This document shows positions 16,032-50,875 of a DNA stretch of 64,000 nt, in pieces; the first letter of the stretch is position 1; each line of letters starts with the position of its first letter. Both the position numbers and the translations under genes were made by a program. The notes under the pieces were generated by a model, which was not told where the DNA came from, searched no databases, and worked only from the letters and a program-made list of their open reading frames with translations. Location: assembly GCA_052327205.1 (NCBI GenBank), contig CM126222.1, positions 31,992,001 to 32,056,000 on the forward strand. Reading direction: 5' to 3'. Source of the DNA: Somniosus microcephalus (taxonomy: Eukaryota).

Positions 16032-17005
16032 ATTATTATTGAACGCAATCTGAATTCCCCTCTCCCTGAGACCAGTTGAAAATCCCCAACCATTGCCCAG
16101 TGTCTTGGCCAACAACAGTTGAAAACAGATTACCTGATTATTCACTCTTTTGCTGTTTGTGGTACTTTACTGTGTGAAAATTGACTGACCTGTTTGTGCA
16201 TGTAACAGCAGTGATAGCTCTTTAAAAAATAATCCATTGGTTGTAAAGCTCTTTGGGAGATGCTAAGAACATCATAAGTCACTATATAAATACAAATTCT
16301 TTATTTCTTTCTAACGGGTACAGACCAACATTTTATGTAATCCACTATGTGAGTACAGTGTTGATGGAGAGATATTATGACTACAGTTTTGTCTCTCCAT
16401 GCTGTAGCATAAAGATTACACTAGGAATGGTTATTTTGTTCTTTATTCTTCTGTACAACATGCACATTATATGATAATACACCTTGCGACACTTTCCAGC
16501 ATCTACACCATTCAACATGTCCTACACCAAGAATTGAGGAATATTACAGTTTCTCCCGTAGGCCTTTCCCAATTTATCGTATTTTAATTTCTCTTGAAGT
16601 AGGGTATAAATCCTCTTACACTGAGTTAAATATTGTAACAGTAAATTGTGTGTTTCAATCGCTGATGTGCTGGAAATTTGATTTATTTTGATGCACTTAG
16701 GAAGATAAAATGCAGCCTTTTGTCTTGGCAGGGCGATAATTATCGAAGTTAACATCTTGTTTGGATGTTTCTTCAGCCGATGTTAAATCAATTGAATTCG
16801 ATTTACAGCCCCGAGTGATTTCATTGACAATTCATGCTATGGGAAGAAGAATAGGCGGGTTTCATCTTAAATAGCCGTGGGAAAAGATCTGTGCTGTTCG
16901 TAAACAATATAGAATGCGTGATAGCTCTGCGGAGTGAGCACCCAGACGCAGCCAATCTCAGAAGATGTTGAAATCGCTGACGTGCAAGGACATACTGTGT
17001 TGTAA

Positions 17006-17227
17006 TAACAACAAAAAATGCTGGAAACACTCAGCAGGTCAGGCAGCATCCGCAGAGAGAGAAAAACAGTGTTAACGTTTCAGGTTTGAGATCCTTCGTC
17101 AGAACTCGGACCTGAAACGTTAACTCTGTTTTTGCTCTTTCCGCGGATGCTGCCCGACCTGCTGAGTGTTTCCAGCATTGTCTGTTGTTATTTCAGATTT
17201 CCAGCATCCGCAGTATTGTGCTGTTGT
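17006..17227. mobile_element. Penelope-like mini-insertion (inverted ends plus tail) with hammerhead motif on - strand at 17070-17106
   Basis: Duplication atactgtgttgtaa (16992-17005/17228-17241); ~80-bp inverted arms; minus strand agtt CTGACGA AGG..CCT GAAA cg TT aac. Confidence 0.8.
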
Positions 17228-44392: not shown

Positions 44393-47167
44393 GCAACATA
44401 CATTTTCTGGTTTGAAAGAGTTAAGAGCCACAATTATGAGCACTGTGATTAATGGGCCAACATTGTCTGCCTTGAAGAATACATAAATAAAATATATTTT
44501 ATAATTTATTTACTGTAATAATATGTTTTTAATCTATCTTCCTTGCAAAGGAATTCTCATATTTTGAAGTAAATCATAACTCTGCCCCATTGTTAGGCTG
44601 AGTAATGAAAAAAATAATATGGAAGAAAATCCCACAGCCTAAGGCTATGGCTCAAAAGTGCCTGACTGCCTTAAAAGCATTCATGTTGAAATGATTAATT
44701 GTCATGTTGCTTTTGAACTCCCTTGCATTTTAAGTTACGGGGCCATATAAAGTATGTACCTGTCTCCTGATATCACACAAGGAAGTTTGTGTGTCTACCA
44801 TCTCCTCCTAATACAGACTGAAATAATCAACTTGTTCAGTAGTCAACAAATAATGCGCCTGGGTCTTGGATAATACTGTTCTTCAATTGACATTGTGATC
44901 CAACTGATAACAGAGGACTGAAGACAATGACCACTTATGCCTCCATCCTTATAAAATCTTCAATACAAGAGAGACCTGCCATCTCCTGTGTGCATCGTTC
45001 AGGAATGCCCAGTGTCCTTCATATATATTGTATACCAGTCTCTTCTATAACTTAATCATTAGTAAAACTATGGATGGGGAGAGTGAGTACTAAGGCTATC
45101 TTTTAAGCAAGGAGCTTGGATAACATCACAAATTTCCAGATTGAATCTTATGGATGGATATTAAGGGTGTCAGTTGAGCCTCAAATTAAGTTTTAACGTG
45201 TAATAAATTCTGTACTATTTAGACTATTCCTTTCAGTAGAATCAAAACTGTATGTTGACAGTTCAAAGCACCAAATTTTACTGTGAAATCTAATATATAA
45301 TTCATATTTTCCATTTTATATTTGCTGTTTTCCTTTATTGTTATGGATGTTTGGGTACATGTTTCCACATTGTGTATCTTGTTAATGACTTTCTTGATCC
45401 ACCTTGCTTGTTGCCTTTAGCCAGCAGTTGAGTACCTCCAGTGCTCCCTGTAGCTCTCAGCAGGACATTCCATGGATTACCCAGGCATGACACCCCTTCT
45501 TAGAATCATAGAATGACACAGCACTGAAGGAGGCCATTCGGCCCATCATGCCTGTGCCAGCTCTTTGAACCAGCTCTCCAATTAGTCCCACTCCCCTGCT
45601 CTTTCCCCACAGTCTTGTAGATTTTTTCCCTTCAAGTATTTATCCAATTCTCTTTTGAATGTTACAATTGAATCTGCTTCCTCCACCCTTCTTCTTTTGT
45701 ATGGTAGCAACAAAGCAAATCAAATGTCCCTATCTAAGTCAGATATCCAGGCCAAAGCTTCCCGTGTAACAACGTGGATATCTTGTAGGCTGCCTGTGAA
45801 TTTCTTCTGAGGGCAGTGCTCAATGATGTGCTCCAGGGTCTGATTAGGAGCTCCACAGTCGCATGATGGGGATGCTTTAATCTTCCATCTATGGAGAAGG
45901 TGGCAGCATCTACCATGACTGGTTCTGAGGCGGTTGACGGTTGTCCACTGTTTGCGAGGAAGGTTTGATCCTTCAGGTTGTACTGTGGGGTCCTCTATAA
46001 GGAATCCATTCCGTATGTTATAGTTCTTACAAGTATTTCGCCATCGATCATCAAGGCTGAGGGGAGATCACTGAAGGGCTTCAGCGACGGTCCAAAATGG
46101 TCTTCTAGATTTGAGACGGATTGGTGGTAGGTTGTTCAAGTCAGCCTGGATCGGCATGTCTTTGCTGATGTAGCAGTTGTATTCTCTGGAAACTACATAT
46201 TCGCAGCGTAGGTGTGGTGGTGCGATGTTTGCAAGCACGGGCAGCCAAGATGTTGGTGTCAATAAAAGCGTACCGCTGATAATTCTCCTAGTAGAATTCA
46301 GCTGGACATCAACGGATTTGACATGCAGACCTGATAACCATGCCGGAGAACAGTACTCCGCTGTAGAGTACACCAGGGCGAGTGCTGCTGTATGGAGGGT
46401 TTGAGCGTCTGCTCCCCATGTGGATCTGGTGAGTTTCTGGATCAAGTTGACCCTACTCTTTAGTTTCTTCCCAAGGATCTGGAGATGTTGTCTATATGAC
46501 AGGGTGCGATCAAGCGTGACTCCTAAATAGGTTTTTTGTCATGGTTTATCTCTGCGCCACAAAAGGAGACTTTCAAAGCTTGGTTTGCTTGATGAGCTTT
46601 GAGGTGGATGGTCGAGGTGGCGGTTTTTTGCATGTTTGGCTGAAGTTGCCATCGGCGGAAGTAGGCCTCCTTCCTCTGTAAATCACTGGTCAGGGTCTCC
46701 TCGGTGATGGACAGATTCATGTTTTGTGTAGCCAAGGCAATGTCATCAGCCTGTACGAACTTGCGGGACTCTGTTTCGGGCAGGTCACTGGTGTAAACGT
46801 TGAATGATATGGGTGCCAGGACAGAACCCTGTGGGAGTCCATCGTTCAATGTCCTATATCTGCTCTTCTGGGTGCCAGAGTACACACGGAAGCGTCTGTT
46901 GCTAAGCATGGAGTTGAGAAGATGGATTGTTGTTCTGCAGGGTAAAATGGTGGAGAGTTTGAAAAGCAAGTCCATGCTTTCATACTGTGTCATATGCCGC
47001 TGACAGGTCCATGAGTGCTACGGCAGTCTTGAGCTGGTGCTGGAAGCTTGCTTCGATGTGCGTTGTTAAAGCTACCACTTGGTTGCAGCAGTTACGGCCA
47101 CTCTGGAAGCCCGCTTGCTGCTTAGGAATGGTTGGCTCAATGATGGAGGCTAGTCTGTGGAGTAGTA

Positions 47168-47855
47168 CGATAGCAAAATACTGCAGATGTTGGAAATCCG
47201 AAATAACAACAGAAAATGCTGGAAAAACTCAGCAGGTCAGGCAACATCCGTGGAGAAAAATTTGAGTTGACGTTTCGGGTTGGACCCTTCTTCAAAACTG
47301 GAAAGAAAAGAAACTAGATCGGAGGCAGGGCTGCGATCGGACAAAAGAATAAAAGAAACAAAAGAAGTAAAAGAGATTAGAAGCTAGACGAGATGGTAAT
47401 AGGCTGGGATTAGGTGTAAAGTGTACTGGCAGGGCAAAAGATAGCTGCCAGGTGTGAGAGAGAAACAAAAGGAAAGGGGGGGGGGAAAGGAGTGGAACAA
47501 TTACAAGAGAAAATGAAATGGGGGCCGAGCTTATGATCTGAAATTGTTGAACTCGATATTGAGTCCGGAAGGCTGCAGACTGCCTAATCAGAAGATGAGG
47601 TGCTGTTCCTCGAGTTTACATTGAGCTTCCGTGGAACAATACAAGAGGCCCAGCCTATTACCATCTCGTCTAGCTTCTAATCTCTTTTACTTCTTTTGTT
47701 TCTTTTATTCTTTTGTCCGATCGCAGCCCTGCCTCCGATCTAGTTTCTTTTCTTTCCAGTTTTGAAGAAGGGTCCAACCCGAAACGTCAACTCAAATTTC
47801 TCTCCACGGATGTTGCCTGACCTGCTGAGTTTTTCCAGCATTTTCTGTTGTTATT
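47168..47855 (-). mobile_element. Penelope-like element 3' remnant with 209-bp inverted arms, nested in the Vingi RT
   Basis: Duplication tctgtggagtagta (47154-47167/47856-47869); arms 47200-47408 and 47649-47857; spacer encodes KLEEQHLIF*LGSLQPSGLNIEFNNFRS* (GIY-YIG C-terminus) on - strand. Confidence 0.9.
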
Positions 47856-49406
47856 TCTGTGGAGTAGTAGTCTCTCCAGCACTTTATAACAAGCGCAAAG
47901 TAAGGAGATCGGGCAGTAGCTGGAAGCTTCACAAGCATTTGTCCCCTGCTTCAGGAGGGCAATTATTTTAGTCTCCCTCCAAATAGATGGAATTTTACCA
48001 GTTGCCAGTACCTCAGAGAAGAAGGAGGTCAACCATCTCTTGGCTTTGGGTCCCAGTGCTTTTAAGAATTCTGGGTAAACACCATCTGGACCAGCAGCTT
48101 TTCCAGATGTGGTTGTCGACAGGGCTGCGTTTAGTTTGTCCAAGGTGAATGGATCAGACAGAGTTGACGATCTTGGTGCCGCCATCAAGTTTGTCGAAAA
48201 CTGCCACTTCACCTGGCGTCAAGATTCTTTGTCCAGCAGAGCCTTTGATATTTGTATCAAGTGGGATACAATGGCGTCCTGCTCTGATGGTCACCCCGTG
48301 TTTACAGGCGGGGTTTGCCTCACCAAGTTGGCGGAGCAGGGCCCATGTTTTCCTGCTGGAGTGAGTGAAGTTAGTCTTCTCCACAAGGCTCCTCCACCTT
48401 TCATGTCTCGCCCAGTTCAAGGACTCCAGCATTGCGGTGGCTGTGGCTGGTTTCTTGTTCAGCGAATACCTCTGGTAGAGAGCCTCGCTTTCTTCCGTCC
48501 AACAAGGATATATGTCTTTCTAAACCCCCGAGGTATACTGTGTTTTGTGGCAGCTTTAATAATTCCTATAAATCTGTTGAGGGCATTGGTGGTTGGTGGA
48601 ATCCACCTGATGTTGGTGTCAACTGACCTTTGGAAGGTTTCCCAGTTTGCTTTTTTGAAGTTCCATCGTGGTTCCGGTGTTGATGTAATGACAGGAATTT
48701 CGATGCCAGCGTTGATGATTGAGGGCCTGTGTTGACTGTTGAGGAAATCGTCAAGAATAGTTCCTTTGCTGTCTTTAGAGAGGAAACACAGGTCTGGGTT
48801 ATATTCTCTCTGCTACCTTGACGAATGAAACGTACCTCAATCTTTGGCGTCAAAAAGGAGGAATTTATTCTCTAGTGAAGCCCACTGTGCAATTGCTTCT
48901 CCATTATAGGTGATGTCTGCAAAGCCCCATATTGTGTAGAGGCTATTAAAGTCTCTGAGATGGATGGATGTTGACTAGGAGGGAGTGGTGGGTCAGGCCG
49001 CTGTATGAGTGGTGGTTTGTAGACATTGGAGATTATTAGCTCTCCTACGTGTATTGCTGTAGTGAAAACTCTGGCAATACTGGTATGCTAGAGTTCAGTG
49101 CAGCTTTTGATGTCTTGTTTGACATAACGTGCAAGGCCATATTTGGGATGGTTATTGAAAGCGATTAGGTCAAAACCTGTGACATGCCCTCTTGCGTCGA
49201 GCTGGTGGATGTGTTCGATGTGTGTTTCTTGAGTAACCTTTCGAGGTATTCACATTTTGAATGAGAGATGCCTTCGATGTTAAGTTGGCATATTTGGATG
49301 GCTGGATACATGTAGTTTTCTTTGGTCTTGGAGAGGACCGTTTGATTTGCTTGGTTTGCTACTGTCAGCGGGAGATCGATTTAACGACAAGTTCGGTGTC
49401 CTTTGA

Positions 49407-49475
49407 GACGACATTAGTTGTGATCTAAGATCACGTAACAGGGCGGACTGCGAGAAGGCTGTCATCAATCACCCC
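49407..49475 (-). ncRNA. HDV-like (nested double pseudoknot) self-cleaving ribozyme at Vingi 5' end
   Basis: Minus strand: P1 GGGGUGA, P2 GAUGACA, P3 GCC, L3 UUCUCGC, AGU, P1' CCGCCCU, GU, P4 GUGAUC-uua-GAUCAC, J4/2 CUAA, P2' UGUCGUC. Confidence 0.8.
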
Positions 49476-49879
49476 ACCACTCTTTCAGGCAGTGCATTCC
49501 AGATCACAACAACTCGTTGTGAAAAAGAATGTTTCCTCATGTCGCATTTGGTTCTTTTGCCAAGCATCTTAAATCTGTGTCCTCTAGTTACCGACCCTTG
49601 TACCACTGGAAACAGCTTCTCTTTATTTAACGTTTATGATTTTGAATATCTCTATCAAATTTCCTCTTAATGTTCTCTGCTCTAAGGTGAACAACCCCAG
49701 CTTCTCCAGTCTCTCCATATAACTGAAGTCCCTCATCCCTGGTACCATCTAGTAAATCTTTTTTGCACCCTCTCTAAGGCCTTGAAGTGTGATGCCCAGA
49801 ATTGAAAACAATACTGCAGCTGAGGCCTAACCAGTGTTTTATAAAGGTTTAGCATAACTTCCTTGCTTTTGTACTCTAT

Positions 49880-50875
49880 GGGGGAAAAATTCAGTTGGTT
49901 TGCACCTCCCGTTAGCGCCTTAAGAGGGCGCTAATGGGGCGCAAAGCAACTAGCGCCCGGGCGCGGTGATGTTTGCGCCGCTCGCGAAATTGACCAGACA
50001 TTTGTGGCGGCGCTAAACACTACCGCCACGATCTCCTGCGCTGGCAGATCGTGACGTCAGTCGAGTGCGCAACGCCCCGGTAGCGCCCCGGACCGGATAT
50101 TGAGTGGTGCCCCCTGCCTTACCACCTGCCGCTAGCAACGACAGGTTAAGGGGAGCGTTTTGCAGTCAGGAAGGGACTGGGGGAGCGCTATTTAAAGGCG
50201 ACCACTTCCTGCCTTCTTTTGTTGGTGACATTTTTGCACCACGCATTCTGAGAGAGAGAGAGAGACTTCTGGAGAGATTCAATGCTGTGTGAGGGAGTTT
50301 TGGGTACTGAGCAGTGCTTTGCAGGTTCATTTTGATTTGTGCTTGTATTGATTTAGAAGAGACTGTGGGGGCTGCACTCTGAGCTCTTTCCCTGGGTCTC
50401 TCCATTGTTCTTTCCAGCAGATTTGATGTACAGGTCTCTCCAGGCCGAGATTCAAGGCTGCAATGAGCAGGATGTGGATGGAGAGAAAAATCAACCCTCC
50501 CCTTTAAGATAAAAACAGAAAATGCTGGAGAAACTCAGCAGGTCAAGCAGCATCCATGAAGAGAGAAACAGAGTTAACATTTCAGGTCGATGACCTTTCG
50601 TCAGAACTCCCCTTTAAGAACTGGCCGGCGCCAGTGTGTCTGTGTTCCATTGCTGACTGACATTACATGAGCTTTGCCAGCGCTCTGAGGTAGCGCCTCG
50701 CTCCTCGGCCTTTGTGCCTTAAGACAGGTGTGAAGTGCCTGATTTAATGCTCCAATCACCTCCGGGGCGATAAAAGCCAAGTTTGCTGTCAGAGGTGATA
50801 ATTAGCGGCAGGTGCTAAACTTTGCGCACAGCCGATAATGGCGCCCCAAATGGGGCGATACTGAATTTTTCCCCC
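49880..50875. mobile_element. Harbinger-type deletion derivative
   Basis: 15-bp TIRs gggggaaaaattcag / ctgaatttttccccc, TSD tat/tat; minus-strand MERPRERAQ resembles the Myb N-terminus. Confidence 0.88.
50510..50608 (-). mobile_element. ~100-bp Penelope end with hammerhead motif (50572-50608)
   Basis: Duplication ctcccctttaaga (50497-50509/50607-50619); minus strand agtt CTGACGA a AGGTC atc GACCT GAAA tg TT aact. Confidence 0.8.

Follow-up and report, generated by a model that had tools for sequence, protein, structure and literature searches.

A Vingi-like LINE family that begins with an HDV-like ribozyme fold, and a possible retrotransposon ancestry for the mammalian CPEB3 ribozyme

HDV-like ribozymes are already known in the Ingi clade of LINEs, the sister clade of the elements studied here. 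According to the available text of PMC4035085, L1TcRz, or Pr77, of the trypanosomatid L1Tc/ingi elements is a compact ribozyme that occupies the first ~70-80 nt of an APE-type, single-ORF LINE and cuts before nt +1. As far as the sources at hand describe them, the ribozymes of R2, R4, RTE and SART/Baggins also release element RNA from a host co-transcript, and an aid to translation has been proposed for them. The mammalian CPEB3 ribozyme is presented in the accessible part of PMC8233481 as a single intronic copy, reported absent outside mammals. Vingi elements, in the available portions of PMC13708176 and PMC3708506, have a single ORF carrying an APE endonuclease domain and a reverse transcriptase (RT) domain and are without RNase H. 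Our search of published papers, partly through excerpts, returned no ribozyme credited to Vingi and no LINE origin of the CPEB3 ribozyme; a prior mention is possible.

We analyzed a stretch of 64,000 nucleotides from Somniosus microcephalus, hereafter the window. On its minus strand, from 49475 to ~45692, lies the remnant of a LINE with endonuclease and RT. The element landed at the end of another repeat (the host repeat), which we take to be CR1-like, and measures ~3.1 kb once a 658-nt insert is subtracted. Our main reading, to which we assign a probability of roughly 0.85, is that its nt 1-69 formed a CPEB3-type HDV-like double pseudoknot that would have cut the element RNA from host transcripts exactly before G1, the window copy being decayed. 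The segments of the predicted fold (P1, P2, P3, L3, J1/4, P4, the C at 49417 and the ATG at 49414) all lie where the initial annotation had put them. The features are as follows.

49407..49475, minus strand: element nt 1-69, with the HDV-like ribozyme fold of CPEB3 type in a decayed state
49469..49475, minus strand: 5' strand of P1, pairing with 49440-49446; predicted cut just 5' of G1 (49475)
49460..49466, minus strand: 5' strand of P2, pairing with 49407-49413
49447..49459, minus strand: P3, a 7-nt L3 and P3' (P3 strands 49459-49457 and 49449-49447, L3 49456-49450); U20, C22 and G25 kept, G27A and C29T in the window copy
49438..49439, minus strand: J1/4, G37 and U38, giving one C22-G37 pair and a U21.U38 apposition, the CPEB3 form of P1.1 according to the available text of 10.1101/2022.09.22.508989
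49420..49434, minus strand: P4 hairpin of 6 bp (strands 49434-49429 and 49425-49420), with a 7-nt insertion here in a subfamily
49414..49417, minus strand: J4/2, CUAA, with the predicted catalytic C59 (49417)
49412..49414, minus strand: ATG that likely starts the single ORF and overlaps J4/2 and P2'
45720..49414, minus strand: broken single ORF with APE endonuclease, reverse transcriptase and a C-terminal zinc-finger-like motif; no RNase H found
45692..45720, minus strand: short 3' end with a (GAA)n tail
49474..49484, minus strand: target-site duplication, 5' copy, overlapping G1-G2
45681..45691, minus strand: target-site duplication, 3' copy, beyond which the host repeat resumes; limits approximate
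47200..47857, no strand: later 658-nt fold-back insertion that other copies lack; its inverted arms are 209 nt long

The window copy bears several later changes. Relative to the family majority it lacks 2 nt at 49306 and 31 nt at 49230, deletions that shift the frame before and inside the endonuclease. The arms of the 658-nt insertion are 99.5-100% complementary and a ~14-nt duplication flanks it; its ends recur at window 17004-17194 and 50509-50608. A peptide inside the insertion presumably resembles the C-terminus of Penelope-like elements, and a Pfam search with this peptide gave no match. Upstream of the element the host repeat is interrupted by a G+C-rich repeat (window 49880-50150 and 50800-50875) with short inverted ends, visible as 16-nt matches between 49880-49895 and 50860-50875 and between 50119-50134 and 50803-50818.

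The initial annotation had called the element a Vingi-like LINE, and the size, the single APE-RT ORF and the absence of RNase H agree with this. Relatives of the family encode single proteins, mostly of 960-1040 aa, with APE and RT, and Pfam found both domains in family copies. Pfam matched no family at E<=1 in the C-terminal frames of L044 and L052, and no RNase H in P0001 and P0044; by eye, the leader peptides of family copies contain no NPGP-type (2A-like) motif. RNase H and an N-terminal 2A-like peptide mark the Ingi clade, and the window family shows neither. It further differs from L1TcRz, whose place in the element is similar, in a G1.U start rather than C1, in residing in a large animal genome and in having its start codon inside J4/2-P2'. 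R2, in the sources available, is site-specific and often has a long J1/2 or a cut within 28S, whereas the window family has a 2-nt J1/2 and dispersed insertion sites. The described Vingi-1_Acar, Vingi-1_EE and Vingi-2_Gav are, on the published portions consulted, alike in length (~3.1 kb), in one ORF of ~1000 aa with APE and RT, and in the absence of RNase H. The start of locus L159, one of the relatives described below, resembles Vingi-2_Gav, an indirect tie to Vingi. Among viral contigs there were no relatives, and the only solved structures matched were LINE-1, R2 and a group II intron RT. We refer to the element as Vingi-like, as placed by architecture with an RT tree that holds no named Vingi references.

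In the window copy the pair counts agree with those first annotated, 7/7 in P2 (one of them U.G), 6/6 in P4 and 6/7 in P1, including G1.U36. The unpaired position in P1 is A7.C30; P3 keeps 2/3, with G17.U29 a wobble and C19.A27 unpaired. Differences from the family majority are G7A, A8T, G27A, C29T and A32G. Two of these five changes break pairs at the P1-P3 core, making a poor ribozyme probable, and we regard this copy as probably weak or dead, cutting poorly or not at all. The mismatches in P3 and P1 had been attributed to CpG-type decay, which fits G27A but not the other four changes. One stretch of the window copy is, we presume, close to the HDV core 12-mer. Rfam reported no ribozyme model for the window region at E<=10, and the copy does not reach the Rfam gathering cut-off for HDV or CPEB3. 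Plain minimum-energy folding, a method that cannot show a pseudoknot, gave z=-1.09 and a different structure. A relaxed descriptor was needed to capture the window copy, and it had no match when the 100-nt piece holding the copy was shuffled 20,000 times. In a compact version of this descriptor the site is the window's only match, with 0 sites in 20 shuffled windows. The loose version finds 1.4 sites per shuffled window, and a lone copy is therefore not conclusive without its family. That background, along with the missing Rfam match, is what a chance resemblance in a G+C-rich start would have in its favor; we consider such a coincidence extremely improbable, given that the family majority fits a strict descriptor and that the fold, as described below, occurs at the same place in eight other families and nowhere else in 322 kb.

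Copies of the family were collected by a search with the element's first 200 nt (294 candidates, 40 scored) and by a second search omitting the ribozyme (154 candidates, 40 scored, 30 loci returned). De-duplication by genome place left 57 distinct copies, 12 rows having been dropped (11 same loci and 1 segmental duplicate), and the copies are 92-98% similar to the family majority. The majority of 55 aligned genomic loci has a complete HDV-like fold over nt 1-69, with P1 7/7, P2 7/7, P3 3/3 and P4 6/6 in double-pseudoknot order. Restoration of the P1 and P3 pairs in a consensus had been proposed as a check, and both helices are indeed fully restored. Every pair is kept in 82-100% of the copies that cover it. 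The C22-G37 pair of P1.1 is formed in 46/49 copies, with U.U at the second position as in CPEB3, and the G1.U36 wobble at the cut site is found in 20 of the 21 copies that reach nt 1. C59 is present in 46/50 copies, with an A two positions after it in the family, and the L3 residues U20 and G25 are conserved in the alignment. A strict descriptor, matched by 0/20,000 dinucleotide shuffles, is matched by the family majority and still by just 4/57 individual copies. The descriptor or Infernal search that had been suggested thus had a divided outcome, with a pass for the majority on the strict descriptor but no Rfam match for the window copy. In contigs of four public runs, filed under four organisms of which one could be the window's own species, the pair-restoring base accounts for 94-100% of depth at 49444 and 49447 and for 66-89% at 49449.

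The sole shared length variant is a 6-7 nt insertion in P4, found in 10/50 copies; the CPEB3 ribozyme is described as tolerating change in P4 in the available text of PMC8233481. We also considered selection on inserted copies. Non-CpG divergence is 3.5% over nt 5-69 versus 4.2% and 5.2% downstream, a difference that is biased by the search, and it was discounted.

Where copies begin bears directly on the predicted cut. Starts fall at nt 1 in 21 of the 57 copies, at nt 2-5 in 24, at nt 9-11 in 5 and further in for 7; the expectation that full-length copies start at G1 is borne out, with 45/57 beginning within nt 1-5, and none extends upstream of 49475 on the same strand. Among the 27 copies that start at nt 1-2, the 12 positions upstream of nt 1 show no conservation. 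With the ribozyme-free query, 21/29 copies nevertheless begin at nt <=10. Contigs of the host repeat track the window up to 49474. Among nine other full-length copies, target duplications are clear in four, ending at nt 0 or +1, and a script found no convincing duplication in the other five. In the window copy the duplication reads AAGAGTGGTGG / AAGGGTGGAGG (9/11 identical by eye) and includes G1-G2, leaving the boundary of this copy ambiguous by 2 nt. The claim that G1 is the boundary between element and duplication stands for the pile-up of copies, but in the window it holds only to within those 2 nt.

Transcription starting at G1 from an internal promoter would yield an identical pile-up, the fold then having a second function or being a slow ribozyme, comparable to the dual Pr77 of L1Tc. 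There is precedent in the sister clade, where promoter and ribozyme are reported within the same 77 nt (PMC3383444 and PMC6765202, in the text available). Such a start would predict a cap-derived extra G at -1, which is seen in only 3/27 copies; its near-absence weakly favors an uncapped template. Among the relatives described below, helices diverge while pairing and catalytic residues stay, which argues for selection on the RNA. We consider it unlikely that a promoter alone sets the 5' end, and by analogy with L1Tc a promoter may lie in the same bases as the ribozyme.

In nine loci (L002, L005, L016, L025, L026, L076, L091, L095 and L099) the 5' part is inverted against the 3' part, resembling the twin-priming products of mammalian L1, and no target duplication was confirmed around these nine. 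L061 and L076 have inverted element sequence in common upstream. The inverted part ends exactly at G1 in 4/8 examined copies and at nt 3-9 in the other four; the inversions ending at G1 are a second sign of a template ending there.

A protein alignment of 51 relatives was used to fetch 76 metagenome loci, of which 27 include the protein start and 23 of these have at least 240 nt upstream. The fold is present in 11 of the 23, from 8 families. Scanning all 76 loci (321,968 bases, both strands) gave those 11 matches and no others, all sense and 173-247 nt before the endonuclease. The descriptor had no match in 12/23 loci: by eye, L130, L132 and L148 have degenerate folds and L178 the 3' half alone, and the eight without any fold are presumed to be 5'-truncated. 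In L130, the region ~424-560 can be drawn by eye as an HDV-like fold with a long hairpin inside L3, which the descriptor missed. Across nine rows, both-side changes occur in 14/18 pairs and 88% of cells pair versus 38-46% when slid, in an alignment whose rows were picked by a pairing descriptor and so biased toward structure, three of them misregistered by the aligner. By descriptor, U20, C22, G25, the catalytic C and an A two positions after that C occur in all nine families, each of which starts with G. Helix sequences vary between families while pairing and catalytic residues are constant, suggesting selection on RNA. In the RT tree, which is rooted on one distant sequence and weakly supported at its deep nodes, fold-bearing loci occur in all main branches. 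Judged from sequence, the fold spans the whole sampled Vingi-like group and is not special to the window family.

The same conservation bears on whether the window family keeps the fold mainly as a structural module, such as a shield against exonucleases, a protein-binding site or an aid to translation, its cleavage having been lost or being a side effect. In its favor, the accessible text of PMC13708176 describes folds of this kind as protecting R2 templates in the manner of a cap and has the Vingi-1 driver RNA retain its native 5' UTR, and a single-pair P1.1 is tied to slow catalysis in CPEB3 (10.1101/2022.09.22.508989, in part). A module of this sort would not need the catalytic residues kept in all nine families, the leading G or a fold placed at the element's first base, and we find it very unlikely. 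The claim of an HDV-like ribozyme fold at the LINE 5' end is, by the majority fold and the compensatory changes in relatives, confirmed for the family.

Under the cleavage reading, an element within a transcription unit would be read through from a host promoter. C59 would serve as the general acid, by analogy with C75 of HDV, and cleavage before G1 would free from the host transcript a 5'-OH RNA starting at G1. This RNA would be both message and template, and full-length cDNA would stop at G1. Cap-independent initiation at ATG62, aided by the ribozyme, is the likely route and the weakest step of the proposal. Because the start codon sits within J4/2-P2', 3 nt beyond C59, initiation would need to open P2. 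In the partial sources available, ribozyme-assisted cap-independent initiation is reported for other retrotransposon ribozymes, and some trypanosomatid copies with good folds show no cleavage in vitro (PMC4035085).

The probable start at 49414 (ATG62), overlapping J4/2-P2', had been pointed out initially and is retained. It is in frame with the endonuclease in 36/46 copies and is the only start staying in frame in both subfamilies; in the window copy the 2-nt deletion follows it. ATG8 and ATG11 keep the frame in the main subfamily and lose it in the 10/50 copies that have the P4 insertion, and were therefore rejected as the conserved start. L134, L135 and L167 (3/8 other families) likewise have an in-frame ATG located 3 nt beyond the catalytic C. 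Of the remaining families, one has its first in-frame ATG within P2' and four, out of nine families in all, have it elsewhere; the overlap is thus not universal.

The fold shares its architecture with the mammalian CPEB3 ribozyme (RF00622), with the same numbering through nt 38, P1 at 1-7/30-36 and a 7-nt L3; on the partial literature at hand, both likewise have G37-U38 and a P1.1 made of one C-G pair plus a U.U. The window family differs in its helix sequences and has no match to the model. Other members of the group come far closer. Among 20 loci scanned with RF00622 (cut-off 35), L161 and L162 matched, at 55.6 bits, and agree with 35 of the first 38 CPEB3 consensus bases; six other fold-bearing loci were below the cut-off. 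L159 (3775-3848), L161 and L162 represent a branch start nearly identical to the CPEB3 consensus. Nucleotides 2-74 of Vingi-2_Gav and 61-127 of SINE2-1_AMi are given in the supplement of PMC5786205, with no remark on a ribozyme in the part available. The printed Vingi-2_Gav 5' end can be drawn by eye as the same structure, is all but identical in sequence to the L159 start and, also by eye, agrees with the Rfam CPEB3 consensus in 38/40 bases (nt 2-41) and 13/13 at the 3' end.

Applied to the same genome as the window, the CPEB3 model passed its cut-off at 55/59 scored places. Of 30 places inspected, 25 are a SINE with a tRNA-like head and a shortened P1. In this SINE of ~370 nt (L102-L106, L108-L113, L115, L116 and L118-L129) the CPEB3-like segment sits close to the 3' end and both strands of P1 are shortened, which is what a need to switch off cleavage and so retain the head would predict. 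L100, L101, L107, L114 and L117 have CPEB3-like folds with a fuller P1 and unrelated upstream flanks. L114, which also passes the RF00622 cut-off, runs into a broken APE-RT ORF closest to P0076, and P0076 and L159 share a branch (support 1.00). L114 is, as its ORF and its closest relative indicate, a second, older Vingi-like family in the same genome.

Convergence was considered as a source of the CPEB3 likeness and rejected, because the match covers the P1 and P2 helices, which differ freely among other families. For active-site bases convergence is genuine, according to the available text of PMC3774820. We think it more likely than not that an HDV-like ribozyme is both ancestral and clade-wide at Vingi 5' ends and that the mammalian CPEB3 ribozyme is the exapted 5' end of an extinct Vingi, or of a Vingi-derived SINE, from the L159/L114/Vingi-2_Gav branch.

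Taken together, the aligned sequences indicate that an HDV-like ribozyme fold is genuine in this LINE family and lies exactly at its 5' end, and they give a well-supported clue to where the CPEB3 ribozyme came from. The finding adds a LINE clade to the likely users of HDV-like ribozymes and supplies nine naturally occurring versions of the fold, in several of which the start codon is buried next to the catalytic base. According to the accessible part of PMC13708176, Vingi-1, complete with its native 5' UTR, is under development for inserting genes from RNA alone, and a self-cleaving, uncapping module in that 5' UTR would affect template design. Deeper ancestry of the CPEB3 ribozyme is described as untraceable for want of non-mammalian relatives (PMC8233481, in the text available); the Vingi-like ribozymes offer it a testable origin and outgroups. 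If this origin is true, relatives of the "mammal-only" ribozyme would survive at the heads of mobile elements in other animals.
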